Shown here in pieces: positions 16,415 to 40,908 of a stretch of 64,000 nt of DNA. Each line of letters begins with the position of its first letter. Positions within the stretch are counted from its first letter, which is position 1. The notes under the pieces are model-generated. The model had not been told where the DNA came from, searched no databases, and saw only the letters and a program-made list of their open reading frames with translations. The DNA comes from an uncultured Ectothiorhodospiraceae bacterium. Lineage in GTDB: Bacteria; Pseudomonadota; Gammaproteobacteria; JAABTG01. The DNA is taken from NCBI GenBank assembly GCA_937867305.1, contig CALMKJ010000156.1, forward strand, positions 12,011 through 76,010. Direction: 5' to 3'. Made by a program: the position numbers and the translations under genes.

Positions 16415-17422
16415 TCAGCTATCGACCCCGGTGATCCCGAAGTAGGTCTTCAGCACCTCCTGTGCCACCTGCTTCACCTCGGCGATCTTGCGGCGCACCG
16501 TCGGTGCTGCGATCCCGACGATGTCGGCGATGTCCGCGCTCGTCGGGGGCCGGTCGAACGACGCCGCCATGTCGGTGCCAAAGAACGCCTCGGCGACCTT
16601 CCCGTGCGACTCCGAGACCTGGTAGCAGCGCTCGATCGTCACCTTCACCAACAGGTCCCGCTCCGCCGAATGCAACACCCCGTCCTGGTCGTTCGGGTCC
16701 GGGGTGCACGACACCTGCTCGCCGTAACCGGCAGCCCCGTGCGTGCCGCGTTCGTCGTGCGGGTCCGACCGGGACTCCAAGTCCCGCAACTCCACCGCCG
16801 GCCCCGAGTTCATGACCTGGTAGTCCTCGACCGTGCACAGCATCCCTTGCCGGGCCGCGTCCTTGCGGTGGGCGCGCATCCGGCGGTTCGTCTCCTCCAC
16901 GACCTGCTCAGCGGTCGGGTCGCACACGCCTTCGACGAGCAACTGGTCGCGGGTCTGCCGCATCTGGTTGATCCGGCGCTTCAACGACACCTGGCGTGAC
17001 GCGGTGTTCATCCCGGCCGACGAGTCGACCCACACCCGGACCCGCGACTTGGCCCGGTACGACACCATCCCGGTGAACGAGGTGATCTCGTCGACGGTCA
17101 GCGTCCCGTCGCGGACGTCTTTGACGACCAGCAGGAACGCCTCGTTGACCAGCGACAGCACGTCGCCGCCGTGGGTGGTGCGGTCCAGCCGGTACGACAT
17201 GGCGATCCGGGTCGCGATCTTGCGCAGCTCCGGCTGCTGGGCACGGGCGAAGTCCTCCAAGATCGCGTCGCCTTCAGCCGGGGTGGCGGACGCGATCGCG
17301 GCCAGCCATTCGGTCGGTGCAGACGACCCTGCCAGGTCCGGGGCCGTCATGGGCACGAGCGTCGACTGCCACTCCGCGGGCGCGGGGGCCTCAGTCGCGT
17401 CGAGGCAGTCGTAGTCGGCCAT
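16415..17422 (-). CDS. sigma-70 family RNA polymerase sigma factor (about 335 aa, SigF/FliA-like size)
   Basis: Region-2-like (LSLVNEAFLLVVKDV...) and region-4 HTH (IADIVGIAAPTVRRKIAEVKQVAQEVL). Start placed at the ATG 2 nt after the stop of the mIHF-like gene (TGACCATG). Confidence 0.55.
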   Translation of the reverse strand: MADYDCLDATEAPAPAEWQSTLVPMTAPDLAGSSAPTEWLAAIASATPAEGDAILEDFARAQQPELRKIATRIAMSYRLDRTTHGGDVLSLVNEAFLLVVKDVRDGTLTVDEITSFTGMVSYRAKSRVRVWVDSSAGMNTASRQVSLKRRINQMRQTRDQLLVEGVCDPTAEQVVEETNRRMRAHRKDAARQGMLCTVEDYQVMNSGPAVELRDLESRSDPHDERGTHGAAGYGEQVSCTPDPNDQDGVLHSAERDLLVKVTIERCYQVSESHGKVAEAFFGTDMAASFDRPPTSADIADIVGIAAPTVRRKIAEVKQVAQEVLKTYFGITGVDS

Positions 17423-17424
17423 GG

Positions 17425-17931
17425 TCAACGGCCCTTCTGTGTCGTGGCGGTCGCAGGCCGCGGCGCTGAAGGGAAGCCGGGCCAAGGCACTGTGTGCGGC
17501 TTGGCGGCGTCCATCCAGGCGTACAGCCTTTTGGCCCCAGCCCGCGGGACGGTCAACCAGAGGATGTCCTTGTCACCGAGATCGTTCGGGGCCGAATCAA
17601 GTCTGACAGCCACCGCCGACAAGAACGCATCCGCGCGCACCCGGCCCACGTTCGGCTGGGCCAACACGAGTTGGTTCAGCTTGATGCGACGCAACGGCCC
17701 GCCCTCGGGACCCATCGCGGAGACCACCACGTCGAACGCGGTCACCTGCCCGGTTGCGACCATCAGCAGTGCCTCGGAGCGCGCTCGTTTCGCCTTCACC
17801 GACGCGCTACGAGCCGCAGTCGTGTCCTTCCCGAGCTGGCACACAGACGCGGTCCCCTGGTTCCCCTGACAAACTCCCGTGTCGGGGTGACCTGGCGCGC
17901 GAGCTTCGGTGGTAGTGACGGTGGTGTTCAT
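17425..17931 (-). CDS. mIHF-like (actinobacterial integration host factor) DNA-binding protein
   Basis: C-terminal block RRIKLNQLVLAQPNVGRVRADAFLSAVAVRL matches the mIHF pattern (K-V-S-A-LL-x-LP-x-VG-x-V-K-A); GAGGAGG RBS; class-3 motif 22 nt upstream. Confidence 0.5.
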   Translation of the reverse strand: MNTTVTTTEARAPGHPDTGVCQGNQGTASVCQLGKDTTAARSASVKAKRARSEALLMVATGQVTAFDVVVSAMGPEGGPLRRIKLNQLVLAQPNVGRVRADAFLSAVAVRLDSAPNDLGDKDILWLTVPRAGAKRLYAWMDAAKPHTVPWPGFPSAPRPATATTQKGR

Positions 17932-18078
17932 AGGTGCCGGCCTCCTCGGCCAGCACCATGCGCAAACCTAGTGCTACCCCAATCCGGCATAGTCTGATGC
18001 GCGGAAAGATAGTCATAACGGACTATTGAGCGTGGCGTGCTCTTCCTTTGCGTTTCCGTGTGGCCTGCGTCACACGGG

Positions 18079-19170
18079 TCAGAAACCGCCGGACAGCCAC
18101 CCGTCCGACCCGTCAGAGTCCTCATCGACGAAGTCGGAGTCGAAACCGTCCGACCTCGTCATCGACAGACACCCGCTCATCGGGTCCGGTTGCACCGACA
18201 ACGCCGCCGCCACCCGGTCCGTGGAGACCTTGTCCTTCGGGTACAGGTCCCGGACCGCAGCGACCACCGACTCCACGTCGCGCAAGTCCAGGTCACGGGC
18301 CACATCCCGGATCCTGCGCCCGATCCGCGGGTCACCGACCCGTTGCCGGATCGCCTCCGCCGCGTCGCGGCGAACCGCCCGGTTCACGTACCTCAACGGG
18401 TCAACCCGGCGCATCGACTCAGGCGTCAGAATCTTCTCCACGATCGCGTCCAGCTTCCCGATCCGGCCTTCGACCCCGTACAGGAAGTCGGTGATCACCG
18501 ACTCCAACGCCACCTCGTCCAACAGCAACCGGTCCGGCATCCCCTGGAACGCACACACCTCGTGCGACACCCCGAAGTGGGCGCGGCGCAACATCAACCG
18601 CACCCTCGGTGCCATCAACGACCGCAGCTCCCACCGGGCCATCTCGCCTTCCTCGGCGATGACGGTCAACCGTTGCCGCAGCACCCGCTCCGGCTCGGTC
18701 ACCACCGACGCGAACACCGGGACCCCGAACTCGTCCTTCTCGACCTGGTCCTCGAAGCCGACGTCGTCGAGGACGACCTTGCACACCCCGGACTCGTCGT
18801 GACCCATCGACAACGTCGACCAGACCAGCTCGGTGTTCTCGGTCAGCACCGCCAACGGCTCCGACCATTCCAGCCGGACCGGCATCGAGAGACGCTCACC
18901 GTTGCGCCCGTTGTCCTTACGCCCCACGTTGATCTTCGAGCACATCCACCCGAACGACTCCGGAACGAACAACCCGCCGGACACCGGCAGGTCACCCTCC
19001 TCGACGAGACGGGCCGCCAACCGGCCCACCACGATCCGGTGCAGCAGCTCGGTCAACGTCCACAACGACGCGTGCCTGCCGTTGACCGCCAACGCGGACA
19101 GGTTCTCGTCGTCCTCCTCGAGGACCCCAGGCTCGTCTAGGTCCAGGGCCTCGACAGGTGCGGTGGTCAT
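18079..19170 (-). CDS. hypothetical protein (363 aa)
   Basis: Track ORF with normal composition; ATGA overlap with the stop of the 19167..21236 gene. Confidence 0.5.
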   Translation of the reverse strand: MTTAPVEALDLDEPGVLEEDDENLSALAVNGRHASLWTLTELLHRIVVGRLAARLVEEGDLPVSGGLFVPESFGWMCSKINVGRKDNGRNGERLSMPVRLEWSEPLAVLTENTELVWSTLSMGHDESGVCKVVLDDVGFEDQVEKDEFGVPVFASVVTEPERVLRQRLTVIAEEGEMARWELRSLMAPRVRLMLRRAHFGVSHEVCAFQGMPDRLLLDEVALESVITDFLYGVEGRIGKLDAIVEKILTPESMRRVDPLRYVNRAVRRDAAEAIRQRVGDPRIGRRIRDVARDLDLRDVESVVAAVRDLYPKDKVSTDRVAAALSVQPDPMSGCLSMTRSDGFDSDFVDEDSDGSDGWLSGGF

Positions 19171-21236
19171 CCGCGTCCGCCGAGGCCGAAGAGCCGACGT
19201 CGTCGACGAGACGGCTGGTCCTGTTCCTCCTGGATCTGCTCAGGAACCTGGAGCCCCGGGAACACGTTGCCGAGCACCGCACCCATGAACTTGGCGAACT
19301 GCGGCACCTCGACCGGCAGGCCGCCGGCGTTCTGCCGCTCCGGGATGGCCGTATCGGCGTAGCAGACCCCCAGGAACACCGAGTGCTCGGAGATCGCGGC
19401 AGCCAAGCCGTCCTGGTAGAAGCTCAGGTTGTTCGGCACCCGGTTCAGGAACGAGAGCTGCCGTTCCCGAGGCACACCGTGCGCGGCGAACTTCTTGAGC
19501 CGCGACAGCGTGTTCGTCACCCCGGACGAGGACACGTCAGTTGAACACATGCCCCACGCGCCGGAGGCCAGCAACGGAAGCAAGAACCGGTCGACCATTC
19601 CGGAGGAGTCCTTCGCCTCCACGATCTGGGTGTCGATGACGACCAGGTCGCACATCGCTCGCGCGTCGGCGACCAGTCGCATGTACACCTCCGGGGTCAC
19701 CACGGACTCGTCGGCTAGGTGCGCCGGCGGTGCCGTGATGAGCCCGAACCGGAGCGGCGTCTGCTTCAGGTCACGCGCCTCGGTCAACGTGACCGGCGAG
19801 ATGAGCGTCTGCCGGATGTCGCCGGTGACCGCGTAGTTGTAGACCGACGGCAGCGACGCCATCCCGATGCGCAGGTAGGTGCGGATGTCGCCCTGGCCCA
19901 TGTTCGCGTCGATGAGGATGACCCGCAGGCCACGTTCGGCGGCGTGCTGAGCCAGAGAGCAGGACGCGGACGTCTTGCCGGTGCCACCTTTCGCGGCCCA
20001 ACTGACCACCACCTGGCCTTGGCCCTGGTCGGGCGAACCGGTGACCAGGTGACCGGTCCGGGACACGGGCACCAGCTCGCCGCCTGGGCTCTGCACGTAC
20101 GGGCCGTCTGTCGACACCCCGCTGTCGCGCGCCTCATGGAGCTGCTGCGTCGCGATAGCGGCGAACACGTCCTCGTCGGGCTCCGGCTCGGTCTCATCGA
20201 CCGGCTGGAGCGGCGGCGCGGTGAACACGGGCTCGACCGGAGAGGGTGCGACGGTGGGTGCCGGCTCCGGCTGAACCTCCTCGCCCGTCGGCGCGGTGAA
20301 CACGGGCACCTTGTCGGGCTCCGGCTCGTCCACGGCAGGCGCGACGAACACCGGGGTCTCCGGTACGGGCTCTACCCACGGGTCCTCGCCGACGGGCTCC
20401 GCCTCCACCGGCGGTGCGGTGAACACCGGCTCCGACTCCGGGTCAGGCTCGACCGGGGGCGCAACGAACACCGGGGTCTCCGGTGCTGGCTCGTCACCCC
20501 ACGGGTCTTCGTCGGAGTGGTGTTCCCCGGCGGCCGGAGCTGTGAACACCGGGTCGGCCGCCGGGGAAGTCTCTGAGTCGTCCTCGACCGGCGGTGCGAC
20601 GAACACCGGCTCCGGGTCGGACGGCACCTCGAACACCGGGTCGTCGACCGGCTCCGGGGCAGGCTGCACCGGCGGCGCGACGAACACCGGGTCGACGGCA
20701 GGAGGCTGGTCGCCCCACGGGTCGTCGACGACAGGCTCCGGCTGCGGTGCGGTCACCGGGACGTACGGGTGCTCCTCGACCGGGGTCGGAGGGGCAGGTG
20801 GAGCAGGAGGAGCCGGCTCCGGTTCGGCGTAGTCGCCGACGAACCCGTCGACCGTGCCCCGCTCGTCGACCTTGAACGCCGCGAACGACGGGTGGACCGC
20901 CCGGTTCGCCAGCGCGAGAAGCTCCGCCAGCGTCATCGGGACGAACGCCTCGATGACCGAGTCGTCGGCGAAGTCGACACCGTCACCGGTCACGGTGCGC
21001 ACCACCACGACCGTCGTCTCGTGCGAGAACCGGGTCGCCCAGGCGCGCAGGCCCGGCCACTTCGAGTCGGCGACGAAGATCGGGAACGACCCGAACTCGT
21101 CGGTGGCGGCCCGGATGTTGGTCGCGGTCGCCTTGTAGTCATCGGCGGTGATGACGGTGTACCCGGCCGCCGTCAAGGCGGCGGCCAGCGACGGGAGTCG
21201 CATCACGCCGATCATGTGGGCTGACGTTGTGTTCAC
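19167..21236 (-). CDS. TadZ/CpaE/ParA-family P-loop ATPase with an N-terminal receiver-like domain and a long Pro/Glu/Val-rich linker
   Basis: Deviant Walker A VVVSWAAKGGTGKTSAS... characteristic of the ParA/MinD/CpaE family. The N-terminal about 100 aa have a CheY-like alternating pattern, and about 200 aa of PEPV-type repeats follow. GTG start lies 6 nt after class-2 motif GTGGCACAGG. Confidence 0.55.
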   Translation of the reverse strand: MNTTSAHMIGVMRLPSLAAALTAAGYTVITADDYKATATNIRAATDEFGSFPIFVADSKWPGLRAWATRFSHETTVVVVRTVTGDGVDFADDSVIEAFVPMTLAELLALANRAVHPSFAAFKVDERGTVDGFVGDYAEPEPAPPAPPAPPTPVEEHPYVPVTAPQPEPVVDDPWGDQPPAVDPVFVAPPVQPAPEPVDDPVFEVPSDPEPVFVAPPVEDDSETSPAADPVFTAPAAGEHHSDEDPWGDEPAPETPVFVAPPVEPDPESEPVFTAPPVEAEPVGEDPWVEPVPETPVFVAPAVDEPEPDKVPVFTAPTGEEVQPEPAPTVAPSPVEPVFTAPPLQPVDETEPEPDEDVFAAIATQQLHEARDSGVSTDGPYVQSPGGELVPVSRTGHLVTGSPDQGQGQVVVSWAAKGGTGKTSASCSLAQHAAERGLRVILIDANMGQGDIRTYLRIGMASLPSVYNYAVTGDIRQTLISPVTLTEARDLKQTPLRFGLITAPPAHLADESVVTPEVYMRLVADARAMCDLVVIDTQIVEAKDSSGMVDRFLLPLLASGAWGMCSTDVSSSGVTNTLSRLKKFAAHGVPRERQLSFLNRVPNNLSFYQDGLAAAISEHSVFLGVCYADTAIPERQNAGGLPVEVPQFAKFMGAVLGNVFPGLQVPEQIQEEQDQPSRRRRRLFGLGGRG

Positions 21237-21322
21237 GCCGTCCCTGTGCCACACCCCGTCCACGAGGTGGCCAGAAACGATGGTGCGGAGGTAAAACCGC
21301 AGGTCAGAGCCGGTTCAGGAGG

Positions 21323-22006
21323 TCAGTCGGTGCCGACCCCCGCCCGGGTCAACACGCGCGAACGCCACACCGAGATCTCGGCGTACGACAGCGAACCGGG
21401 GGCGGACTGCCACTCGTCCAGGTCGTGCAGCTCGGGCCGGACCCGCGCCCACTCCTCCTCGGTGAGCCTGCGCCCCAGGTGGTCCTCGAACGAGCCGCGT
21501 CCCTGGTAGGAGACCGCAAGACCCGACTCGTCGGCGAGCTGGAGCAGGTCGGCAACCGCTGACGCGTGCCCGGTCTGCGCCCGGTCTTCGACATGAGACA
21601 GGAACATCCGGCCGGCCGGAGCGTCCAACGAGTCCTGGACCGCGTCCTTGATCCTGGCCTGGAGAGCTTTGCCGTAGAGGTAGACGGCGTCGAACTCGCC
21701 GTTGGCCGTACTCCACTCCTCGGTGTCCGCCATGTCGGTGCGCCAACCACGCCAGAACGTCGCGACCCGGTCGCCGGTGAGGATCTGGGTGGCGATCTCG
21801 CCGTCGTCGGTGAACCCGACCTTGAACGTCGGCTCCGGCAGATGCTCAGGCCACGAGGGAAGGCCGGCAGCCAGGAGAGGGCTCACCGGGCGTCCCGTGA
21901 CCAACGGAGCCGGTTTGACCAACGGCACCCCGGACTCGTCACGGTGCTGCTCGGCGAACCTGCCGTCACCGCCGTGTAGGCGACCGTTCGCGTCAAGGAT
22001 GCTCAT
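21323..22006 (-). CDS. hypothetical protein (227 aa)
   Basis: Track ORF, normal composition. Confidence 0.45.
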   Translation of the reverse strand: MSILDANGRLHGGDGRFAEQHRDESGVPLVKPAPLVTGRPVSPLLAAGLPSWPEHLPEPTFKVGFTDDGEIATQILTGDRVATFWRGWRTDMADTEEWSTANGEFDAVYLYGKALQARIKDAVQDSLDAPAGRMFLSHVEDRAQTGHASAVADLLQLADESGLAVSYQGRGSFEDHLGRRLTEEEWARVRPELHDLDEWQSAPGSLSYAEISVWRSRVLTRAGVGTD

Positions 22007-22067
22007 GCCCCGCCGGTGTGCGGGGGTTCGAGCAGGTGATCCCCGGGTCTCTCAGTTGCCCGGGCGG

Positions 22068-23459: not shown

Positions 23460-23890
23460 GTGCTCGTGGCCAACTCCGTGCTGCTTTGCCACTTTGCCAC
23501 GATTGGCCCGACCGAAGTGGCGAACAGCTCCAAGCCCCTGACCTGCGGAAACAGTCCCCAGACGGGGTCGTTTTGCCAGTCTTGCCAGTTTGCCACCCGG
23601 TGGGGGATACACATATGAGGGGGAGGTATATACCTGCACCTGTGGGTATACACCTATGAGACCCCATACGTACTACTACCTCTACCTAAAGTGGTAAGAG
23701 ATCTCTACATACCTACTAAAAGGGCCTCTGACCTGCGGAAACGTGTTTGCCACTTTTTTCGGCCGTTCGTGACAAAGTGGCAAGATCCGGGGTGCTGAGC
23801 GTAAAGAACAGCCCAGAAACCGGGGGTTCTTGCCACGAACCGTTCTCGCTCGTGGCAAGACCCGGCCACCCGACTGGTGTGTGGTGGCAC
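23460..23890. repeat. putative replication origin / divergent control region: multiple direct and inverted TTGCCAC repeats, duplicated GACCTGCGGAAAC, and a locally AT-rich segment with GGTATA(T/C)ACC repeats
   Basis: tttgccactttgccacg, ttttgccagtcttgccagtttgccac, gtttgccactttttt/gacaaagtggcaaga (inverted), and cttgccacgaaccgttctcgctcgtggcaag (inverted). A relatively AT-rich segment (about 23600..23740) is unusual for this high-GC window. The region lies between divergent operons, directly upstream of the primase-helicase gene. Confidence 0.4.
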
Positions 23891-23899
23891 AGGGTGAAC

Positions 23900-26800
23900 A
23901 TGACCGACGACACCCAGCGCCCCGACCAGCACACCGACAAGGCTGCGACGGAGCCCACCTCTCCCCCAGCCGTCACCCCTGACGACCACGACGCCACCGC
24001 CAACGCTCTGGCCGAGGAAGTGAAGGAGCGGCTCGCCCGAGTCGAGTCCGACACCCGCAGCCTCGAAGGCGACCTGGACGAGATGCTGAAGTGGCCCCAG
24101 CCGTGGGCCATCGCCGACTACGTCCCGTCCGGGGTGTTCGGCAAAGGAGCCAAGAAGCTCTCCGAGAGCTACGTCGCCCCGCTGGTCGCCGCCGCTCGCG
24201 GGTACCGGGAGTTCGACGAGTCCAACGTGGCCGACATCGGTCCCGCGTTCGGGATGACCGACCGTCGCTCTCAGCAGATGCGACGCGTCTACGACGCGGC
24301 CGGACGCTCCGGCGTGCTCATGATGCCTTGGTTCGCCGTCGACACCGTGGTCGCCGCGGAGACCCGCGCCGGCGCAGCCAAGCACGACTCGGTCCAGTTC
24401 CGCCCCGGCACCCTGCCGCCGGAAGTCGAAGGGGTCAAGCAGCGCAAGTACGAGTTCGTCTCAGGCGACCAGACCCCCATCGCGGTCCACCCGTCCATCC
24501 CCGCATCCTGGATCGAAGCCTCCGGGAAGGTCCTGCTCGCCGAAGGGCTCCTCAAAGGCGACGCGGCCCTGACCGGGTACCTGCTCGACCACGGGTTCAC
24601 CAAGGACGAGCTGTCGTACGACGGTGACGGGGACGCACGCAAGCGTCTCACCGCGATGCTGAACACGATCCCCGACGACGAGCGCTTGACGATCTTCACC
24701 ATGGCGGGCGTGTGGAACTGGAAGCAGAACCACGAATGGAACGCGCTGCGGCTCATAGACCGCGAGGTGTGGCTCGGGGTCGACGGCGACGTCGCCACCA
24801 AGCCGGGCGTCTACAAGGCCACCCACGCCCTGTGGAACTACCTGACCGAGAAGAAGAAGGCGGACGTCAAGCTCCTGTCGCCGGTCATCTCGATCGAGAA
24901 CAGCCACGGTGAGACCGACAAGGTCGGCATCGACGACTACCTGGCCAAGTACGGGACCTGGTCCCAGCTCCTCGGGTGCCTGGCCGACGTGCTGCCCCCG
25001 CAGCCGGCCGACCTGCAAGCCGAGAAGGGCGAGGCCCGGATCGACTCGGACGGCTGCTCGTCGTCGCGGTACGTCATCACCGAGGAAGACTCGGTGACCG
25101 GCAAGGCACTCGACGGCAGGTGGGTGCCGTTCCTGCCGATCGGTGGACGCATCCACGCGATGGTCGCCGACCGGATCCCGACCGACAAAGAGCTCAGCAC
25201 CGGGGCGTTCGGTGCCGACGTGAGCGAAGACTCCATCTCCTGGAACGTCGAGATCGAGATCCGGTTCCGCAACGGGGTCGGTGAGGTCGAGTCGTACATG
25301 GTCTCCGGCCCCCACCACATCTTGAACTTCCTGCCCGAGAAGTGGCACGACAAGGGAGCCCACATCCCCGGCCCGGTCATGGTCCACCCTGAATGGCCTC
25401 CGCGCGGCAAGGACGCCGAGTCGTGGGTGAAGGCGGTCAAGTCGTACGCGCCGGAGCGGATGGTGCGCCGCACCCGGTGGGCGTGCATGGGCTGGGTCCC
25501 GGTGCCCGGCGGGGTCCCCGTCTACGTCGCCGGCAACCACGTCATCGGCGGCTCCGACGCCGAGTCGGACAACGAGGAGGTGCTGCCCGGTGTGACCGAC
25601 GACCTGTTGGAGCGTGCCGCGGCGTTCGGTGCCGGACCCGACTCCGGTCTCACGTTCGACTCCCAGGAGTACCGCGAGGAGGTCCGGGTCGCGATCGAGG
25701 CGGTCATGAAGGCGTACGTGACCAACAACGTGTGGACGAACCGGGCGAACGCCGCCGTGGTCGTGGCCGCCGGACTGCGCCCGGCACTGCCGATCCGGCC
25801 GAAGGCTGTCATGTACTTCGTCGGCCCGAAAGGCACCGGCAAGACGTTCTCCGGCAACGCCGTCATCGCGTTCTGGCAGTCCGCCCCCGGTTCGCTCATC
25901 CCGGTTCCGGGGTCCGCGAAAGACACCTACGCCTCGATGGAGCTGAACACGGCCAGGTCCAACATCTGGGTGGTCGACGACCTGGCGCCTGCGTCGTCGC
26001 GCCGGCAGTCCGAGGACGAGAAGGACAAGATCGGTTCCCTCATCCGCAACACGTTCAACGGTGCCGCCAGGGGCCGGTCGAACGCCAACATGGAGTCGCG
26101 GAAGAAGAACAACCCGCGGGCGCTGCTCGTCATCACCGCTGAGAACGAGCCGACGGTGTCCTCCGAACTGGACCGGCTCGTGCTGTGCGACATCGGGTAC
26201 CGGTCGCTGAACCCCGAGACGTGGCCCACCGACGCGCTTCGCGACATGGTCGAGTCCGGCGGGCGACCCGGTGCCGGTGCACCGGCCCTGGTGTCCCAGG
26301 CGATGGTGAAGTACCTGCGCTGGTGCGCGGCCCAGCCTGGGTCGTCGTGGGCGTCGGTGTACGAGCAGGTGCAGCAGTCACGTGCCACCGTCGAAGGTCA
26401 GGCCAAGCTGGCGTTGGAGACCCTCGGTGGTCGTCCGCGTCACGCGGACCTGTCCGCCGACCTGACGTTGTCCTTCCACTGGCTGCGCAGGATCGCGATC
26501 GAGGTCGGGTGCTCTGATGAGGTACTGCGGTTGCTCAACTCCGTCGACGGTCTGCCGAACGACGTGATCGGCCTGGTCGGTACCACTGCTCGGGAGAACC
26601 AGGAGACCTCGCCGGGTCGCGCCCTGGTCAACGCGATCACGTCGGTGCTGCGACGCGGACGCGCCCACATCGTGTCCGCGGACGACCCGTCGGTGCCGCC
26701 GTGCGACCCCGAGACCGAGCGCAACCAGTTGTCCGCGCTCGGCTGGGTCAGCAACGGAGGCAACAACAAGGACTGGCGGCCTGCGCACGGTTCGGAGCCG

Positions 26801-27112
26801 ATCGGGTGGCTGGTGCGGGAGAAAGGCGAGCCGGTCATCATCTTCGACCCGCACTCGGCGTTCCTGATCGCCCAGCAGCACAGCAGTCTCATCCCGCACG
26901 GTCAGGGCCAGCGCATGTCGTGGGCCTCGGTCACCGGTGAAGGGCTCGGCATCGAAGACATGCTGCGTACCGACAAGTCCGGCAAGCGCATCAACTCAGC
27001 CCGGAAGACGACGAACGGGACGCTCTACATGGGGTACCCGGTGGCGTTGAGCCAGATCCTGGACGGCGGCGCGACCCGTGACATCGACGGCGAAGACGAG
27101 GACGACGACTGA
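23900..27112 (+). CDS. replicative primase-helicase (TOPRIM-type primase domain fused to a P-loop, SF3/D5-like helicase domain)
   Basis: TOPRIM-like VWLGVDGDVATKPGVYKA (DxD); Walker A MYFVGPKGTGKTFSG; Walker B-like IWVVDDLAP. Start is the ATG of MTDDTQ, 6 nt after class-2 motif GTGGTGGCACAGG. Confidence 0.6.
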   Translation: MTDDTQRPDQHTDKAATEPTSPPAVTPDDHDATANALAEEVKERLARVESDTRSLEGDLDEMLKWPQPWAIADYVPSGVFGKGAKKLSESYVAPLVAAARGYREFDESNVADIGPAFGMTDRRSQQMRRVYDAAGRSGVLMMPWFAVDTVVAAETRAGAAKHDSVQFRPGTLPPEVEGVKQRKYEFVSGDQTPIAVHPSIPASWIEASGKVLLAEGLLKGDAALTGYLLDHGFTKDELSYDGDGDARKRLTAMLNTIPDDERLTIFTMAGVWNWKQNHEWNALRLIDREVWLGVDGDVATKPGVYKATHALWNYLTEKKKADVKLLSPVISIENSHGETDKVGIDDYLAKYGTWSQLLGCLADVLPPQPADLQAEKGEARIDSDGCSSSRYVITEEDSVTGKALDGRWVPFLPIGGRIHAMVADRIPTDKELSTGAFGADVSEDSISWNVEIEIRFRNGVGEVESYMVSGPHHILNFLPEKWHDKGAHIPGPVMVHPEWPPRGKDAESWVKAVKSYAPERMVRRTRWACMGWVPVPGGVPVYVAGNHVIGGSDAESDNEEVLPGVTDDLLERAAAFGAGPDSGLTFDSQEYREEVRVAIEAVMKAYVTNNVWTNRANAAVVVAAGLRPALPIRPKAVMYFVGPKGTGKTFSGNAVIAFWQSAPGSLIPVPGSAKDTYASMELNTARSNIWVVDDLAPASSRRQSEDEKDKIGSLIRNTFNGAARGRSNANMESRKKNNPRALLVITAENEPTVSSELDRLVLCDIGYRSLNPETWPTDALRDMVESGGRPGAGAPALVSQAMVKYLRWCAAQPGSSWASVYEQVQQSRATVEGQAKLALETLGGRPRHADLSADLTLSFHWLRRIAIEVGCSDEVLRLLNSVDGLPNDVIGLVGTTARENQETSPGRALVNAITSVLRRGRAHIVSADDPSVPPCDPETERNQLSALGWVSNGGNNKDWRPAHGSEPIGWLVREKGEPVIIFDPHSAFLIAQQHSSLIPHGQGQRMSWASVTGEGLGIEDMLRTDKSGKRINSARKTTNGTLYMGYPVALSQILDGGATRDIDGEDEDDD

Positions 27113-27122
27113 GCGGCCCGAT

Positions 27123-29031: not shown

Positions 29032-29143
29032 CTGGCGGGTCCGGCTACGCTGAGCATCGAAGCCCTGGGGTAACCCGAGCACCCCGGGGCTTCGCCATGC
29101 CCGGACGGTGCACGGGACGTCCGGCCCCGCACACAGACACGGC

Positions 29144-29482
29144 ATGACCACTTCTTCTGAGACGTACACGATCACCACCGTCAGCGGCCGGACCCGGGTG
29201 ATCCCGGACCGGCTCATCGACCAGGTCGTCGGCCTGGACGATGAGGGCCGCATCGTCGTCGACACGCACGGCTACCTCAACGACACGTCGAACAGCGCGT
29301 TCCTGTTCGGGCTCACCATGTGCTGCGACGCCTTCGACAAGGGCGTCGAAGACGCCGTCGTGTGCCGGGGCTGCTACTCCACCGACGACACCGGCAACTA
29401 CCTGTGGTTCAACGGCCACGAGTTCGACGGCCTCGACCCGATCTCCGCCGACCCGCACCCGACGCCGCAGGAACTGCGGTGA
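29144..29482 (+). CDS. hypothetical protein (112 aa)
   Basis: Internal ATG of track ORF 29108..29482, 9 nt after a full class-1 motif. Confidence 0.45.
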   Translation: MTTSSETYTITTVSGRTRVIPDRLIDQVVGLDDEGRIVVDTHGYLNDTSNSAFLFGLTMCCDAFDKGVEDAVVCRGCYSTDDTGNYLWFNGHEFDGLDPISADPHPTPQELR

Positions 29483-30116: not shown

Positions 30117-30184
30117 GCCGACAGGCTCCCCTCCCACCGGGCGACAGCCCGGACCCGACCCGACAGGGCATCTAAATAAGCTCG

Positions 30185-35177: not shown

Positions 35178-35207
35178 CACCGGCTCCCCTGCACCCGGTG
35201 TTTGCGC

Positions 35208-35387: not shown

Positions 35388-36019
35388 GGACCCGGTCCGA
35401 GACCGGTCGGGTGTTGGGCACCCCTGGTGGTTCGTTGTCGAACCCGGACTGGTTGGGTGCGTCCGCTCGAGGGGCGGCCCGGGTGGGCCAGGCCGGTGAG
35501 GTGCGGACCGCGGCTGTCTTGGACGAGTTCGCCCGTGGTGGGTCGGTCACGGTGCTGCACGACCTGATGACCCCGTCGAAGAAGTACAAGGCGAACATCG
35601 ACCACGTCGTCGTGTCCGGTTCGACCGTCTACCCGATCGACTCGAAGGTGTGGAAGCCGGGCCGGTACTGGACGTGGGGTGGCCGGACCCGTCGAGGGTG
35701 GGAGCGGTTCACGCCGGCGGAGAAGAAGACGATGGTGGTGATCACCCAGGCGTTGGAGGCGTACCTGGCTGCCCGGGGCGTGAACGCGGTGGTCGCCGAA
35801 CCGTTGCTGTTCGTGTGGCCGTCGTCGAAACATTCGTCGTTGCGGACTGGGTTGTTGACGGTGCCGGGTGCCCGGGTGGTGCCGGGCCCGAGAGTCCAGG
35901 GAACGGTCTCGAAGCTGTTCGGGAACCGTCTGCGGGGCGGCGGTCAGGCCGCTGACGAACGGGTCGTGGACGCGTTGGTCCCGTTGCTGAACCGTCCTGG
36001 GCCGTCCGTTTTCGGTTGA
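35384..36019 (+). CDS. NERD (nuclease-related domain) protein
   Basis: VLHDLMTPSKKYKANIDHVVVSGSTVYPIDSKVWKPGRYW matches the NERD core (DIDHvvi...GvfvIEtK); ATGA overlap with the upstream stop. Confidence 0.5.
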   Translation: MRTRSETGRVLGTPGGSLSNPDWLGASARGAARVGQAGEVRTAAVLDEFARGGSVTVLHDLMTPSKKYKANIDHVVVSGSTVYPIDSKVWKPGRYWTWGGRTRRGWERFTPAEKKTMVVITQALEAYLAARGVNAVVAEPLLFVWPSSKHSSLRTGLLTVPGARVVPGPRVQGTVSKLFGNRLRGGGQAADERVVDALVPLLNRPGPSVFG

Positions 36020-36035
36020 CCGGCACAGGGAAGGC

Positions 36036-39000
36036 ATGTCGACCGCCCGCGCCCGCCCGCGTTCTCGTTCGCGTTCTGCCGCCCAGCAGCCGCAGGGCAC
36101 CGAGGCGTTCGTGGTCCTGCTGGTGGTCACCGGCCTTGTCGCCGGCCTTGCTGGCGTGTGGTTCGGGGTGCCTGGGTTCGTGTTCACCTGGTTCGCGTGG
36201 GTGGTTGCGGCGTGGGCGTTGACGCCGCCTGAGCTGACCGGCACCGACATGAACCGCAACCCGGTTCCGCAGGGTCCGCGCGAGGAGCGTGCGATGCGCC
36301 GGTTCAACTTCGCCAGGTCGGCGAAGTGGGGTCTGGTGTTCCCGTTCCACGCGTTCTGGCCGGGTTGGCCGGTGAAGGCGGCGTGGCTGGCCGGCCTGGT
36401 GGCCGGGTTGGCGGCGTTCCTGGTCCCGCACCGGGCGGTACCGGGTCGGCCGCCGTTCGCGTTGAACGTGGTGGACGGGTTGTTCGTGCTCGTTCTGGTC
36501 ACCCAGGCGGCTGCGGCTCGCCGCGACTCGGTGGTGCTCGGCGACCGGTCGCCGGGGGTGGCGGTCGACGGGCTGCGGGGCTTGTTCGCCGACGCGTCGG
36601 CGAAGCTGCCGCGTGAAGCCGCCTTCGGTCTGGTCACAGCGGCCGGTCTGTTCGGTGGGGCGGTCGGCTGGTGGTACGTGGCCCCGTTGCTGGGTGCCCC
36701 GGCACCGTTGGGTTCGTTCGCGGGCCCGTTGTGGGGTGTCGTCGGCTTGTTCACGGGTCTGGGTGCCGCGGCCGGGCCGGCGTGGGTGTCGGCGTCGTTG
36801 ACGCATTGGCGCACCGTGGTCGCGGCCCGCCGGGAGTGGGCCCCGTGCTGGACCATGTTGAAGCACGTGAACCCGCCGCAGCTCCTGGACCGGCGTACGG
36901 TCGGCCCGGCGATCGTGGACACGTTCCGAGCGGACGGGTCGATGGGGTCACAGTCGTACCTGCGGCTGGGCGAGAAGATCTTGCAGGCCAGGGGCACATC
37001 GCACCGGATCGCGGTGCACACGGTCCCGGCCCGTGACCCGCAAGGTCAACCGATCCCGGGTTCGGCGGACCCGCTCGGGTTCCTGATCGTGTCGTGGCCC
37101 AACGACGTCGCACCGGACCTGACGGACCCTTCCGAAGACCCGGCGGTCCTGCGGCTGTACGTCGAGTCGGTGTTCGCGTGGCTTGGTGAAGGGTGGGGCG
37201 CGGGCCCGGTCTTGGACGAGATGACTCTGCTGACGACTCCGGACGCCGCGGCGGCGTGGATGTTGACGCTGTTCTCTGCCGGGTCGTTGCAGTGGGACGG
37301 GTTGCGCCGCGAAGGCATCAAAGGGATGTCCGGGTACCTGGGGTGCCAGGTGTTGGTCGACCACCGGGACCCGCAGGCGAACAAGCCGACCGGGCAGGCG
37401 GTGTACGCCGGCAACCTGACACACGACCCGGAGCTGTCCGGTGAGTCCCCTGTTTCGGCCGACGACTTGGAGTACCTGCACTACGAAGACGAATGGAACG
37501 GCCGGTGGGCGGCTGCGCTGAAACGGGACTCGAACCCTCCGACCCCGTACCGGTCGACCCGGTCGACGGAGAAGCTGCCGAACGGGCAGGAGATCCACCG
37601 GATGGCGTTCGTGACCCGCCAAGGCGTCGACCCGCGCGAGTTCTTCAACCTGGAAGCGAAAGTGGCGGCGACCTTGTCCGGTGCCCCGTTCCTCACGATC
37701 ACGGGGTGGCAGTTGAACAACCGGGCCGGCGAACGGCACGCGCAGGCGTTCACTGTGTTCTGGTCGTCGGCCGCGGTGCCGGGGAACCCGGACCGGTTGC
37801 CGCCGGCACCGCCTCCTGGTCGCCCCGAACGCGGCCGTAGGGGGCGTGTCGCCCCGCCGAGCACGGATGCTCAACGATGGGTGTTGGGCGGCATCGTCAA
37901 CGACGCGTTCAAGGCTGCCCGGTTGGCTCGACCGGAGGTGCACAAGGTCCGGTGTCTGACCGACCCGGGGTCTCGCGGCCACATCTGGGCGTTGAGCATC
38001 CGGCTGTTCGACGGCGTGACGTTGGCGGACGTGCGAGGCGCTTCGCAACGGTTGCGTCAGCAGATGGGCAGCGAATGGCTGCGGGTCGAGTCCGCGGCCG
38101 ACGGCGTCACGATCGTTGCAGGGGTGTCCCCGTCGAGGGCCACCGTCGCGACCAAGCACGACTCGGACTGGCTGGTCTCGTTGGACTGGGAGCAGGCGTG
38201 GCTGGACTCGAAGGTGTCCGGTGTCGGCGGGTTCACTCCGCGTCTGGTCGAGGTGGGCAACCTGCCGGCGAACCAGCAGGTCCAGGTGCTCGACTTTTCG
38301 TTGCCGTCGGGTCTGGCTGTCGGGGACGTGAAGGCGGCGACCAGCAAGTTGGAGACGGCGACCGGGAACGCGTTCGTGGATGTGCGGATGCACCCGAACG
38401 GGAAGCCGGACATGATGCGGGTTCTGGTGTGCGAGGTGAGCCCGTTGCCCGAGCGAGTCAACTTCGACTTCGAGGCGGCTGACGCCGCTGACGGGGTGGT
38501 GTTTGCGACCGGGGTCGAAGGCGAGCCGATTGTGTTCGACTCGTCGTCGTCGCCGCACGCGCTCCTGGCTGGCACCACCGGCTCAGGAAAAAGCGTGCTG
38601 GCCCAGTGCTTCTTGTACGGGTTCTTGACGGCACCGGGTGGTGCGGACGTCTACGTGATCGACCCGATCAAGGGCGCCGCGGACTTCAAGTTCGCGGAAC
38701 CGTACGCGAAGGCGTTCGCTGTCGACACGTTCCAGGCGGCCGGGGTGTTGAAGACCGTGTACGCGGAAGTGGTGCGCCGCAAGAACGAGAACGCGAAGCA
38801 TGGTGCTTCTTCGTACCGGGAGCTGCCGGACCCGCCATTGCCGATCGTGGTCATGATCGACGAGTTCACGTCGCTCATGGGTCAGTCGCCGGTCCCGAAA
38901 CCGTCGGACGACCCAGAGATGGAACGTGAACGAGCCCTGCTGATCGCGGACAACGCGGCCCGGGTGGAGGTCGGTGTGCTGACCGGGAAACTGGCCCGCG

Positions 39001-39989
39001 AAGCGCGTTCGGCCGGCGTGACTCTGCTGCTGGCGACCCAGAAACTGACCGCCAAAATGTTGGAGGTGGTGCCGGGGTCGAGCGATCTGAAGCAGAACCT
39101 GGCCCACATTCTGCTCGGCAACGCCTCTTCATGGGACCGGCAGTCGGCGTTGACCAGGCCCGAGAATGCTCCGCCGCTGGTCGGCCACGTCCCGAAGGGC
39201 CGCGGCTTGTGGGAGTCGTTGACGTCCAACGCCGTCGTCATCCAGACGTGGTTCGCACCGCAGAACGTGATGGCTCACGAGCTGTCGTCGCGTGGGCGGG
39301 TGCTGGAGGAGTCGGAGAAGGTCGACCTGTCTCGTTTCACGGCGCCGGCTTTGGAGGTCGACGGGGAGGTCATCGGCCCGGCGAACCCGGTGTTCACGGG
39401 TCCGGCGGAGGTCGATGAGGTGATCGAGCTCGACGACCTCGAGTTCAGCTTGGACGACTTGGAGCTCGACCTCGACGACGTACCGCCTCCGGGCGAGGGC
39501 GAGTCACAGGGGCCTGATTCTCCGGTCGCTCCGGCACCTTCTCTGCCGACGGCCGAGTCGGCTGACCCGGATGTGGTGAGTGTCGGTTCGGAGGTCGTGT
39601 GGGACGAAGTAGACCCGTCGCCGTGGACCCCGGAGGTGTCCGACTACGGGTGGGACGAGGTGGACGCGTTCGAGGCGTTCTTGGCCGAGTTCGGTCATGT
39701 CGGCCAGGTGACGTGGATGGACCCGAGGTTGTTGACGCCGGGCCCGGACGGGTCGCTCCTGGTGGACACGGTCCAGGAGATCGCGGATGCGGCCGGTGTC
39801 GTGTTCACGGGTCCGGACCTCCCTGTTCCCACCCCACCGTCTCCCGCTCCGGCGGCGGCGAACCTGGTCGACTTCGACTTCGAGGAGCGTCCGTCGGTTC
39901 CCCCGCACACCTTGCCGGCAACACCGGGGGACGACTTTGACGCGCCTGCGCCGCCTCCGGTTCGCGACGAGGAGGACCCGTTCGCATGA
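36036..39989 (+). CDS. large membrane-bound FtsK/SpoIIIE-family ATPase (1317 aa)
   Basis: N-terminal TM helices (AFVVLLVVTGLVAGLAGVWFGVPGFVFTWFAWVVAAWAL); a single P-loop LLAGTTGSGKSVLAQ followed by VYVIDPIKG; Walker B VVMIDEFTSLMG; acidic repeat-rich C-terminal tail. Variant class-2 motif CGGCACAGGGAAGGC directly precedes the ATG. Confidence 0.6.
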   Translation: MSTARARPRSRSRSAAQQPQGTEAFVVLLVVTGLVAGLAGVWFGVPGFVFTWFAWVVAAWALTPPELTGTDMNRNPVPQGPREERAMRRFNFARSAKWGLVFPFHAFWPGWPVKAAWLAGLVAGLAAFLVPHRAVPGRPPFALNVVDGLFVLVLVTQAAAARRDSVVLGDRSPGVAVDGLRGLFADASAKLPREAAFGLVTAAGLFGGAVGWWYVAPLLGAPAPLGSFAGPLWGVVGLFTGLGAAAGPAWVSASLTHWRTVVAARREWAPCWTMLKHVNPPQLLDRRTVGPAIVDTFRADGSMGSQSYLRLGEKILQARGTSHRIAVHTVPARDPQGQPIPGSADPLGFLIVSWPNDVAPDLTDPSEDPAVLRLYVESVFAWLGEGWGAGPVLDEMTLLTTPDAAAAWMLTLFSAGSLQWDGLRREGIKGMSGYLGCQVLVDHRDPQANKPTGQAVYAGNLTHDPELSGESPVSADDLEYLHYEDEWNGRWAAALKRDSNPPTPYRSTRSTEKLPNGQEIHRMAFVTRQGVDPREFFNLEAKVAATLSGAPFLTITGWQLNNRAGERHAQAFTVFWSSAAVPGNPDRLPPAPPPGRPERGRRGRVAPPSTDAQRWVLGGIVNDAFKAARLARPEVHKVRCLTDPGSRGHIWALSIRLFDGVTLADVRGASQRLRQQMGSEWLRVESAADGVTIVAGVSPSRATVATKHDSDWLVSLDWEQAWLDSKVSGVGGFTPRLVEVGNLPANQQVQVLDFSLPSGLAVGDVKAATSKLETATGNAFVDVRMHPNGKPDMMRVLVCEVSPLPERVNFDFEAADAADGVVFATGVEGEPIVFDSSSSPHALLAGTTGSGKSVLAQCFLYGFLTAPGGADVYVIDPIKGAADFKFAEPYAKAFAVDTFQAAGVLKTVYAEVVRRKNENAKHGASSYRELPDPPLPIVVMIDEFTSLMGQSPVPKPSDDPEMERERALLIADNAARVEVGVLTGKLAREARSAGVTLLLATQKLTAKMLEVVPGSSDLKQNLAHILLGNASSWDRQSALTRPENAPPLVGHVPKGRGLWESLTSNAVVIQTWFAPQNVMAHELSSRGRVLEESEKVDLSRFTAPALEVDGEVIGPANPVFTGPAEVDEVIELDDLEFSLDDLELDLDDVPPPGEGESQGPDSPVAPAPSLPTAESADPDVVSVGSEVVWDEVDPSPWTPEVSDYGWDEVDAFEAFLAEFGHVGQVTWMDPRLLTPGPDGSLLVDTVQEIADAAGVVFTGPDLPVPTPPSPAPAAANLVDFDFEERPSVPPHTLPATPGDDFDAPAPPPVRDEEDPFA

Positions 39990-40540
39990 CGATTCCGAAC
40001 GACGACACCCCGGTGGTCGCTGACGTGTGTACGGGTGACGTGGTCGCCGAATGGTGGGGGTTGTACCGCGGTGACGTGCGGGCCCGCTTGGGTGACATGA
40101 CTCGCGACCACGGGTTGGCGGACGACTTGACCGTGGAGACGTTCGTGCGGCTGATCCGGCATCTGCGCTTGGGGCGTCCGACCCCGGACAACCCGAAGGC
40201 GTGGCTGCGGGTCACGTCCCGGCGGCTGCTGATCGACCATCTGCGCAGGTCGGCGGTGCGCGCTGAGGAGCCGCGGGCCGACATGCCGGTCATGGTGTCG
40301 TTCTCCGACTTCGACGCCGTGGCTCGTTCGGAGGAGGCGCGTGCGTGGCTCGATACACTCGACCCGAGACAGCGCACGATCATGGAGCTGCGCGACTTCC
40401 ACGACCTTTCGACCGCCGAAGTGGCCGGCATCTTGGGGATGACGGAGCAGGCGGTTCGGTCGGCCCGCCACAAGGCGGTGGTCCATCTGCGTGGGCGAGG
40501 TGCCCCGCACCGTGACGTTGCCGAGGAGGCGAGCGCGTGA
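39986..40540 (+). CDS. ECF-type sigma-70 family sigma factor
   Basis: Region 2 (DLTVETFVRLIRHLRLGRPTPDNPKAWLRVTSRRLLIDHLRR) and region 4 (LDPRQRTIMELRDFHDLSTAEVAGILGMTEQAVRSARHKA); ATGA overlap with the upstream gene. Confidence 0.6.
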   Translation: MTIPNDDTPVVADVCTGDVVAEWWGLYRGDVRARLGDMTRDHGLADDLTVETFVRLIRHLRLGRPTPDNPKAWLRVTSRRLLIDHLRRSAVRAEEPRADMPVMVSFSDFDAVARSEEARAWLDTLDPRQRTIMELRDFHDLSTAEVAGILGMTEQAVRSARHKAVVHLRGRGAPHRDVAEEASA

Positions 40541-40908
40541 ACACGTTGCCGGTGGTGGTCTCTGTCCCGTTGGCTTTGTTGATGGCGGCGTCGGTGACCT
40601 GGGTGATGGCGGAGTCGTTGCGCCGCACCCACGCCCGCGGTACCCGTGGCCGGTTCGTGTGGGCTTCGGTGGAACGCCCCACCAGGTACCCGGCGATCGC
40701 GTACCTGCTCGTGTCGGCGGTGTTGAACGCCCGCGTGTATGAGGACTGGGTGATGTTCCTCCTCAACTGCATGGGGGTGGGTCTTCAGGTGGCGTTGTTG
40801 CAGGAGAAGAGGCGTGATGGTGAGGATGATGACTTCTGGACGGGGTTCAGTGACAAGCTGGCTGCACTGTTCGGCCACCAGGTGGCGCAGGGTCGGGTGA
40901 AGTCATGA
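40537..40908 (+). CDS. membrane protein translationally coupled to the ECF sigma gene; candidate anti-sigma factor
   Basis: GTGA overlap with the sigma stop; two TM helices. The anti-sigma role is inferred from the standard ECF sigma / anti-sigma gene arrangement. Confidence 0.4.
   Translation: MNTLPVVVSVPLALLMAASVTWVMAESLRRTHARGTRGRFVWASVERPTRYPAIAYLLVSAVLNARVYEDWVMFLLNCMGVGLQVALLQEKRRDGEDDDFWTGFSDKLAALFGHQVAQGRVKS

Follow-up and report, generated by a model that had tools for sequence, protein, structure and literature searches.

Two kinds of described systems stand close to the case reported here. SigN of the Bacillus subtilis plasmid pBS32 reportedly guides the RNA polymerase of its host to promoters on the plasmid, that of SigN itself included. 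Sigma factors of the sigma-28/WhiG type read the consensus TAAA-N15-GCCGATAA, in which a short -35 core is joined to an 8-bp 'long -10'. How does a sigma factor gene on an actinobacterial plasmid-like element compare with them? The DNA analysed here, called the window, is a stretch of 64,000 nucleotides (nt) of contig CALMKJ010000156.1 (assembly GCA_937867305.1, positions 12,011 to 76,010, forward strand), and it is part of a 79-kb high-GC actinobacterial plasmid-like element. Two genes for sigma-70-family proteins lie in it, a large one and one of the extracytoplasmic function (ECF) type. As far as family profiles and a structural model can tell, the large protein is a genuine and very divergent sigma factor. 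Its gene sits in a backbone common to several plasmids, and a promoter-like motif, predicted to give leaderless mRNAs, co-occurs with its family. The two genes are as follows:

16415..17422, minus strand: predicted divergent three-domain sigma-70-family protein of 335 amino acids (aa), nearest to FliA/WhiG by family profile and fold
39986..40540, plus strand: ECF (group 4) sigma factor of 184 aa, recognised with Pfam, NCBIfam and PHROG

A sequence-only reading of the window had proposed these two genes together with a small membrane protein gene behind the second. All three open reading frames (ORFs) are present, and the G+C content at their third codon positions (GC3) is 0.84-0.93, which is of coding type; the large gene lies on the minus strand, a point on which that reading was silent. 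The 335-aa ORF is also the public gene call, and its ATG at 17422 stands 2 nt after the stop codon of the preceding gene. A TTG at 17485 was considered as the start and rejected, since it would overlap that gene by about 60 nt and the public call uses ATG 17422.

Is the large protein really a sigma factor? Recognisable sigma regions had been claimed for it, and this claim fared differently with the kind of search: curated profiles did not bear it out for the protein alone, which would to the letter fail the refutation test set in that reading, while the family profile, scans of its relatives and Foldseek did. A word-indexed search found 5 homologs with the single sequence and 27 with a profile, none of them carrying a precomputed Pfam domain. 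An exhaustive profile search extended the family to 436 cluster representatives, 354 of which fall below 1e-10. They are typically about 280 aa long, so that 'SigF/FliA-sized', the earlier description of the 335-aa protein, holds only loosely. FliA (1rp3) was the top match of the family profile among PDB sequences, with an E value of 0.015 for a profile of 9 sequences, 0.0016 for 28 and 1.5e-5 for 139. The remaining PDB matches of the 139-sequence profile are nearly all sigma factors (FliA, SigA region 3.0, SigF, SigE and RpoS region 4), and the profile aligns to region 3.0 of SigA, FliA and SigF. When the 139 members were scanned individually, Pfam Sigma70_r3 was found in 32 (best 5.8e-7), r2 in 3 and r4 in 3; the most frequent NCBIfam match was FliA_WhiG, in 18 members (E <= 0.01, best 9.8e-7), followed by sigma70-ECF in 16.

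The predicted structure points in the same direction. An AlphaFold2 model built from 28 sequences has a predicted local distance difference test (pLDDT) score of 79.6 and contains all three sigma domains, sigma2 at about residues 36-133, sigma3 at about 141-218 and sigma4 at about 252-328; the disordered linker between the last two (about 209-250) is where region 3.2 is expected. The top 50 Foldseek matches in the PDB are all sigma factors (SigD, SigA, RpoS, RpoH and SigB), aligned over about 290-320 columns at 12-16% identity, and the first of them is B. subtilis SigD. The TM-scores of these matches are low, which reflects the domain arrangement. Phage sigma factors were returned when the model was searched against a viral structure library; at the sequence level no PHROG family matched the large protein, and tblastn against 50,697 phage records found nothing. 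On profiles and model together, we judge the protein to be a genuine, very divergent member of the sigma-70 family with sigma2, sigma3 and sigma4, nearest to group 3 and not a member of the curated FliA/WhiG family, whose model TIGR02479 it does not match. Since both the score thresholds and the promoter consensus place it outside FliA/WhiG, it would best be called a new clade of group-3-like sigma factors.

Where else does the family occur? By tblastn it was traced to eight plasmids, 375-608 kb in size, whose hosts are Pseudarthrobacter, Arthrobacter, Paenarthrobacter and Curtobacterium; the homologs there are annotated as 'HTH domain-containing' (helix-turn-helix) or 'hypothetical'. Four plasmid loci were inspected (L001-L004), and two closer relatives were added (L005 and L006). 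The genes to be compared in the window are the following:

21323..22006, minus strand: 227-aa protein, whose gene opens the co-directional string to which the large sigma gene belongs; GC3 0.87, no Pfam match
19167..21263, minus strand: ParA/MinD-type P-loop ATPase of 698 aa (Pfam CbiA 6.8e-8, PHROG ParA-like 2.8e-8)
18079..19170, minus strand: p363, a conserved backbone protein of 363 aa, 29-49% identical to the protein at the same position in L001-L006
17425..17931, minus strand: possibly mIHF-like small DNA-binding protein (NCBIfam actino_IHF, E 1.1e-5, 25.9 bits against a cut-off of 60, residues 37-110)
16005..16403, minus strand: 132-aa protein directly downstream of the large sigma gene; in L005 and L006 a protein 35-40% identical to it likewise follows the sigma homolog
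13414..15825, minus strand: PD-(D/E)XK nuclease with an intein (Pfam PDDEXK_1 2.7e-17, in two stretches)
23747-27112, plus strand: p1121, a protein of 1121 aa without Pfam or PHROG match, the best conserved backbone protein

In the four plasmid loci a ParA-like ATPase (about 690-780 aa) is followed by two proteins, one of about 325-360 aa and one of about 135-170 aa, and then by the sigma homolog. The three Micrococcaceae plasmids continue with a 1050-aa protein and a PD-(D/E)XK nuclease; the Curtobacterium plasmid has its 1050-aa gene upstream, on the opposite strand, and gave no match to the nuclease. The 1050-aa protein, annotated as 'hypothetical', is 32-38% identical to p1121 over about 1000 aa. 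Over the string of ParA-like ATPase, p363, mIHF-like protein, sigma, p1121 and nuclease, identity to the window is 24-42% in L001-L004 and 39-62% in L005 and L006; the latter two are fully collinear with the window, and their sigma factors are 48-49% identical to the large one. The ParA-like ATPase stands upstream of p363 in all relatives. On this gene order, the large sigma gene is best taken as a fixed part of a backbone string common to Arthrobacter, Pseudarthrobacter and Curtobacterium plasmids.

Some members of the string call for comment. The sequence-only reading placed an mIHF-like gene directly before the large sigma gene; the adjacency is there, and the family assignment is weak, as the score given above indicates. 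The gene in that position has counterparts of 36-42% identity on the plasmids from Arthrobacter and Curtobacterium; in L005 and L006 the value is about 50%. It was further read as one operon with the intein-containing nuclease. The nuclease and its intein stand, the latter from PHROG terminase-intein matches at residues 197-334 and from the split alignment to intein-less homologs, but a 179-nt gap with a promoter-like motif of its own separates the gene from the string, so that a common operon holds in part only. No match was found for p363 in Pfam or PHROG, nor for the 132-aa protein in Pfam or NCBIfam. The N-terminal half of the ParA-like ATPase is made up of degenerate repeats of about 40-80 nt (20200-20730, minus strand; families D4, D8, D10, D14 and D15) that appear rich in Pro and Val.

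What might such a sigma factor read? Repeat finding in the window brought out a bipartite motif, GTGCAC or GAGCR, N14, CGCACAC, 9 nt, ATG/GTG. It is far more frequent than expected: there are 14 exact class-A sites, GTGCAY-N14-CGCACAC, against 0.22 expected, always with exact spacing, and 7 class-B sites, GAGCR-N13-15-CGCACAC, against 0.21. The downstream part with the start codon, CCGCACAC-N9-RTG, occurs 19 times against 0.24 expected, and all 19 sites aim at a start codon on the same strand, mostly of ORFs with coding-type GC3. Two correlated classes can be told apart, A being GGTGCAC, N13, CCGCACACA and B being nGAGCR or GATCA, N13, CCGCACACC. In both of them the start codon follows exactly 8 nt after the 9-mer, as at 29107-29146 (plus strand), 41600-41638 (minus strand) and 58753-58791 (plus strand). 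Relative to the start codon, CGCACAC(A/C) thus occupies about -16 to -9, and about -36 to -31 is taken up by the upstream hexamer. This geometry suggests a sigma-70-type promoter that yields a leaderless mRNA, and it would imply leaderless mRNAs for much of the element. The sites that matter most for the argument are listed here:

29107..29146, plus strand: class-A example, GGTGCAC, N13, CCGCACACA, N8, ATG
47034..47061, minus strand: class-A-type site (-35 GGTGCAC, -10 CCGCACACC), 17 nt upstream of tRNA-Lys(UUU) at 46943-47016 (minus strand)
47590..47617, minus strand: class-A site, about 60 nt upstream of tRNA-Leu(CAA) at 47457-47530 (minus strand)
22015..22043 (22004-22043 in a wider delimitation), minus strand: promoter-like site with class-B-type -10 (CCGCACACC, N8, ATG), heading the genes for the 227-aa protein, ParA-like ATPase, p363, mIHF-like protein and large sigma
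17953..17965 (approximate), minus strand: third motif, TTTGCGCATGGTG with the core CGCATG, about 22 nt before the mIHF-like start, with a GAGGAGG ribosome-binding site in between

Two of the sites precede tRNA genes, which are not translated, so that the motif acts at the level of transcription. The third motif is also present before the genes starting at 12628 (minus strand), 53682 (plus strand) and 62495 (plus strand). Because the GAGGAGG ribosome-binding site follows TTTGCGCATGGTG, a transcript of the mIHF-like gene from this motif would have a leader. The motif upstream of the PD-(D/E)XK nuclease gene is TGGCACAG-N7-GTG. Within the nuclease ORF, in its 3' part about 520 nt before the stop codon, there is a full class-A site (13930-13956, minus strand), and a class-A site lies at the equivalent place within the nuclease of L005 (about 7426); the gene may thus have a promoter within it, or its C-terminal part may be expressed as a product of its own.

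Plasmids with large-sigma homologs have related forms of the motif, and in every relative such forms head the ParA-like, p1121 and nuclease genes. On those from Arthrobacter and Curtobacterium, GAC(A)CCCGTC, about N11, CGCATAGA, N6-8, ATG stands before the ParA-like, 1050-aa and nuclease genes, and other genes are preceded by CCG[CT]ACACAT..., N5-7, ATG. The third motif of the window, TTTGCGCATGGTG, resembles the CGCATAGA block. In L005 and L006 the ParA-like and nuclease genes are headed by CTGTGCCA, about N18, TGGCACAG, N7-8, GTG, the TGGCACAG form being common to these loci and the window nuclease gene, and sites of the type GGTGCGT, N13, C[CA]GCACACA occur in L005 and L007. Two plasmids of one strain were also compared. 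In 50 kb of the sigma-bearing pACHL01 (280000-329999, L021) there are 26 copies of CGCACACA, and in 50 kb of pACHL02 (1-50000, L022), on which tblastn found no large-sigma homolog, there are 0. When the scan was widened to a -10-like block that a start codon follows at 6-8 nt, the former stretch gave 22 sites and the latter 1; most of the 22 are CGCACACA or CGTACACA, with a -35-like GGTGAGC or GGGCAG. Two Micromonospora-type plasmid loci have 0-1 sites, and a motif scan of viral contigs returned nothing. Several copies each of class A and class B were found on metagenome contigs of ERZ1645187. The sites on L012, L013, L017 (NODE-54, 106 kb) and L018 (NODE-1346, 22.7 kb) are exactly of the window type, several to a contig, and the NODE-54 and NODE-1346 contigs are probably the closest relatives of the element.

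The motif is therefore specific to the element family and is not a host feature, and it is found together with the large-sigma family over a range of about 25-50% protein identity. Element-specific promoters had been put forward as an idea in the sequence-only reading. The enriched -35/-10/leaderless arrangement, the tRNA sites, and a -10 core that is found with the large-sigma plasmids and not on pACHL02 all agree with it.

Which factor, then, reads these promoters? We lean slightly towards the large sigma. Under this reading the element would bring two sigma-70-family subunits for the host RNA polymerase, and the large one would bind the host core enzyme and read the element's own promoters. 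Each promoter would have GTGCAC (class A) or GAGCR (class B) as its -35-like hexamer, followed after 14 nt by a long -10-like CGCACAC(A/C); the start codon 9 nt after CGCACAC would lead to leaderless mRNAs. Positive autoregulation of the large sigma is suggested by the class-B-type -10 site that precedes its string. A long -10 block goes with recognition of the sigma-28 type, in which sigma3 takes part, and is not usual for ECF sigma factors, which lack sigma3 and typically use short -10 elements. Given this long block, and given that pACHL01 shows no match to the window ECF, the three-domain sigma is the more likely reader of the two. Motif geometry and co-occurrence lend only indirect support to core-polymerase binding and promoter-specific initiation by the large protein. 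The pairing of either sigma factor with any motif, the leaderless starts, the autoregulation and any anti-sigma function are all inferred here from sequence.

It is unlikely, in our estimate, that the promoters are read by some other factor and that the large sigma serves few genes. Host SigA, aided by an element-encoded activator such as the WhiB-like protein, might do so, or else the ECF sigma might, at least in the case of class A, which is confined to this sub-lineage. Two -35 classes would go well with two sigma genes, the element does carry a WhiB-like gene that is itself motif-driven (downstream of the tRNA-Lys site), and the exact class-A hexamer GGTGCAC occurs only in the window element and in the metagenome contigs L011-L020. 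The near variant GGTGCGT is present in L005 and L007, both with large-sigma homologs. On the other side, both classes share the same 8-9 bp -10 block, which has no actinobacterial SigA -10 pattern TANNNT, is longer than the elements that ECF sigma factors typically use, and recurs on plasmids that have the large sigma but show no homolog of the window ECF.

Could the large protein have the fold of a sigma factor and not be a polymerase subunit at all? It might be a stand-alone DNA-binding regulator or a centromere-binding adaptor for the ParA-like ATPase encoded next to it, and the CGCACAC sites would then be operators or centromere-like sites. The position of its gene within a ParA-like string would suit this, as would the public annotation of its homologs, which goes no further than 'HTH domain-containing protein', the failure of all curated sigma models, and the perfect 8-bp inverted repeat of the L005 motif, which is what a dimeric binder would lead one to expect. 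We consider this explanation quite improbable.

The preference for the large sigma as the reader has to be held against several observations that weigh the other way. No curated model was passed by the large protein alone: Sigma70_r3 reached E 0.021, on the C-terminal HTH, with 15.3 bits against 25.3, and TIGR02937 reached E 0.045 with 13.4 bits against a cut-off of 42.9. Aligned by hhalign to an alignment of four ECF sequences, the family matches in register and weakly, with E 0.028. Classes A and B combine one -10 block with different -35 elements, for which a single sigma gives no obvious explanation. The L005 motif, CTGTGCCA, about N18, TGGCACAG, is the inverted repeat just mentioned and would also fit the operator of a dimeric regulator. 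No sigma, ECF or backbone homologs were found in the fragments read from the motif-bearing metagenome contigs. On pACHL01, tblastn at 1e-5 returned nothing related to the window ECF, and other ECF sigma factors are possible there. Lastly, the class-B site before the ECF gene described below has no counterpart in L010, a locus with a related ECF gene.

The second sigma factor is an ordinary member of a very well-known kind, and here the sequence-only reading, which saw sigma regions 2 and 4 in it, is borne out. Pfam finds Sigma70_r2 (9e-12, residues 27-89), Sigma70_r4_2 (1.9e-13, residues 119-168) and Sigma70_ECF (8e-6), TIGR02937 is passed with 73.3 bits against a cut-off of 42.9, and a PHROG sigma family matches at 4.4e-16. 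With sigma2 and sigma4 only and a length in the range of about 170-200 aa, the protein has the features of the ECF class. No subgroup could be assigned among the equivalog models, all of which stay far below cut-off, the best being SigE-fam_strep with 68.1 bits against 141.55. Its closest plasmid relatives, 34-35% identical over 90% of the length, are on Micromonospora/Verrucosispora plasmids of 58-77 kb. The genes and the site around it are these:

36036..39989, plus strand: FtsK/SpoIIIE-type membrane ATPase of 1317 aa (Pfam FtsK_SpoIIIE 7.6e-12)
39885..39911, plus strand: complete class-B promoter-like site (GAGCG, N14, CGCACACC) within the last part of the FtsK-like gene and about 75 nt ahead of the ECF start
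40537..40908, plus strand: 123-aa membrane protein, an anti-sigma candidate by position only, with a GTGA overlap to the ECF gene
40905..41339, plus strand: p144, a soluble Cys/His-rich protein of 144 aa, last gene of the string, with an ATGA overlap to the 123-aa ORF

The stop codon of the FtsK-like gene and the ECF start codon overlap in ATGA, and this junction is conserved in L010. The function of the class-B site at 39885-39911 is uncertain, as it is not conserved in L010. In this arrangement the ECF gene is coupled in translation both to the FtsK-like transfer-type gene, at whose end it lies, and to the two genes downstream; most likely its product controls a narrower gene set tied to the transfer module.

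Is the membrane protein behind it an anti-sigma factor? The sequence-only reading gave it this label and described a GTGA overlap with a protein of two transmembrane segments. The overlap, between the ECF stop codon and the GTG start of the 123-aa ORF, is seen, and so are two clear hydrophobic segments at about residues 1-27 and 70-89. The label itself is not upheld. The first helix begins at residue 4-6, which leaves no N-terminal cytoplasmic anti-sigma domain before it; the zinc motif HxxxCxxC is absent, with a single Cys (C78) and two His in the protein; no Pfam or NCBIfam family matches; and only the position directly after the ECF gene fits. An AlphaFold2 model is all-helical and weak (pLDDT 65.6). 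Homologs are rare: four were found among 5.8 billion proteins, at 52-67% alignment identity, and none in plasmids. They have in common a basic loop, HARGTRGR[YF]VWASVERPTRYP, which is invariant, and an acidic tail, GEDDDFW. In L010 the order of ECF (197 aa), membrane protein (141 aa) and 144-aa protein is kept with 4-nt overlaps, at identities to the window of 57%, 74% and 67%. For p144, Pfam gave sub-threshold matches only (E 0.035 and 0.072), none of them meaningful. What can be stated is that the 123-aa protein is a conserved, translationally coupled membrane protein without an anti-sigma domain.

It may nevertheless tether or gate the ECF sigma. We regard as evenly balanced the case for the alternative, in which the protein belongs to a transfer or envelope module, with an accessory, exclusion or anchoring role, and the ECF sigma is regulated by transcription alone. 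For this speak the missing anti-sigma domain and zinc motif and the transmembrane helix at the very start, and also the fact that the closest plasmid ECF genes, those of Micromonospora and Verrucosispora, are followed by Lsr2 and GGDEF genes and have no membrane partner; the 123-aa gene stands, moreover, at the end of a long string with FtsK-like and TrwB-like genes. On the other hand, the coupling of ECF, membrane protein and p144 by 4-nt overlaps is conserved in L010, and the basic loop and GEDDDFW tail are conserved more strongly than mere passive anchoring in the membrane would call for. Anti-sigma segments can also be very short, as in CnrY.

As for the element as a whole, the G+C content is 68% along the entire window. 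ORFs with coding-type GC3 form a minus-strand block at 1-23345 and then a mainly plus-strand block from 23747. The exact window proteins occur once in public data, on a contig of 79,428 bp, and a near-identity DNA search with 13000-20000 found no match among plasmids. Searches for related loci with two alignments among genome contigs, and with one of these among metagenome contigs, likewise brought up no relatives. The gene content is plasmid-like and transfer-like, with an AAA_10 ATPase, a TrwB-like coupling protein, two FtsK-like ATPases and an ArdC-like protein, together with a methyltransferase, a ThyX gene with an intein, a dATP/dGTP diphosphohydrolase, an RF-1-domain protein, a WhiB-like protein and two tRNAs. 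No phage structural genes, capsid and terminase included, were seen in the window; the PHROG terminase matches are located solely on the nuclease's intein. Inteins split both the ThyX gene (2294-4738, minus strand, with HNH and HTH homing-endonuclease parts) and the PD-(D/E)XK nuclease (13414-15825, minus strand), and the diphosphohydrolase-type gene lies near them (5377-6321, minus strand); L005 has a LAGLIDADG intein in its AAA_10 ATPase instead. A third sigma factor was considered on the strength of Sigma70_r4 matches in ORF 2294-4738 and rejected, the matches being the HTH of the ThyX intein/HNH homing endonuclease.

Several further observations concern the expression machinery. One more gene of this kind is

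46611-46910, minus strand: WhiB-like gene (Pfam Whib 1.8e-10), directly after tRNA-Lys and with its own ribosome-binding site

and its product is the third transcription-machinery protein on the element. Actinobacterial WhiB proteins bind SigA region 4. On the Curtobacterium plasmid a WhiB gene lies within the ParA-like-to-sigma string. The anticodons of tRNA-Lys(UUU) and tRNA-Leu(CAA) are for A/U-ending codons, which are rare in a host of 68% GC. The RF-1/PCRF-domain protein (225 aa, ArfB or release-factor-like; 43598-44275, minus strand) is transcribed after a small gene headed by a class-A site, and a 'peptidyl-tRNA hydrolase' gene is found near the ParA-like-to-sigma string of the Arthrobacter plasmids. 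Two 65-nt stretches, 42546-42610 and 51349-51413, agree at 80% of their positions, although the proteins whose N-termini they encode are different, that of 42533-43543 and the ArdC-like one of 51333-52391; each is headed by a class-B site. Among the relatives, the region 280000-329999 of pACHL01 looks phage-like: its small hypothetical genes, dozens of them on the same strand, are accompanied by LigA, an RNA ligase, an oligoribonuclease and an HNH endonuclease. By contrast, pACHL02 is a co-resident conjugative plasmid.

What would follow from a working large sigma? A literature search on the motif strings, pACHL01 and actinobacterial plasmid sigma factors brought up nothing on the family or the motif, and there seems to be no earlier description of the large-sigma family, of the conserved backbone around it or of the leaderless promoter consensus. 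The clade was missed by curated hidden Markov models and was recovered only by family profiles and structure prediction. If the large protein acts as a sigma factor, a group of actinobacterial plasmids whose genes are now 'hypothetical' or 'HTH protein' would gain an identifiable regulatory logic, made up of an element-encoded sigma, a recognisable promoter consensus and leaderless transcripts. Regulons could then be read straight from sequence, the elements could be delimited in assemblies, and an orthogonal sigma/promoter pair would be at hand for high-GC hosts. A bolder scenario is conceivable, in which the large sigma is the master specificity subunit of a transcriptionally semi-autonomous superfamily of actinobacterial elements of about 80 kb to 600 kb, with leaderless promoters for nearly all transcription units, tRNAs included, and a two-class/ECF cascade; we hold it to be possible and rather doubtful. 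It would make of the large sigma a previously unrecognised plasmid-borne family derived from FliA/WhiG, and of the 600-kb 'megaplasmids' elements with phage-like gene content, a step that we put forward just as tentatively.

How, finally, does the locus compare with the known systems? FliA, SigD and WhiG (group 3, sigma-28 type) have the same sigma2, sigma3 and sigma4 architecture as that predicted for the large sigma, and the geometry GTGC-N15-CCGCACAC parallels the sigma-28/WhiG consensus. It is the geometry alone that is alike, for the window motif is GTGCAC/GAGCR ... CGCACAC, not the sigma-28 consensus. Identity is 12-16% and no curated cut-off is reached, and the window gene is in a plasmid string of ParA-like and mIHF-like genes, unlike theirs, which are in flagellar or sporulation loci; no FlgM- or RsiG-type partner of the large sigma was found. 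The ECF sigma is comparable to those of the Micromonospora/Verrucosispora plasmids (pVMKU, NZ_CP054924) in lying beside conjugative-transfer genes. Theirs, however, heads the transfer string and is followed by Lsr2 and GGDEF genes, whereas the window ECF is distal, overlaps the FtsK-like gene and is followed by the membrane protein and p144. Phage sigma factors (Bacillus phage SigF/SigE-like and T4 gp55) are structural neighbours of the large-sigma model and embody the same concept, a mobile element with its own promoter-specificity subunit, but they differ from the large sigma in sequence, as the PHROG and tblastn searches indicate. Two papers describe SigN (ZpdN) of B. subtilis pBS32 as a plasmid-encoded sigma factor (PMC6751061, PMC10601692). 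By analogy it is the nearest functional precedent for the large sigma. It comes from another phylum, and the window sigma gene differs in belonging to a conserved maintenance-type backbone and in having a putative regulon of many genes and tRNAs.

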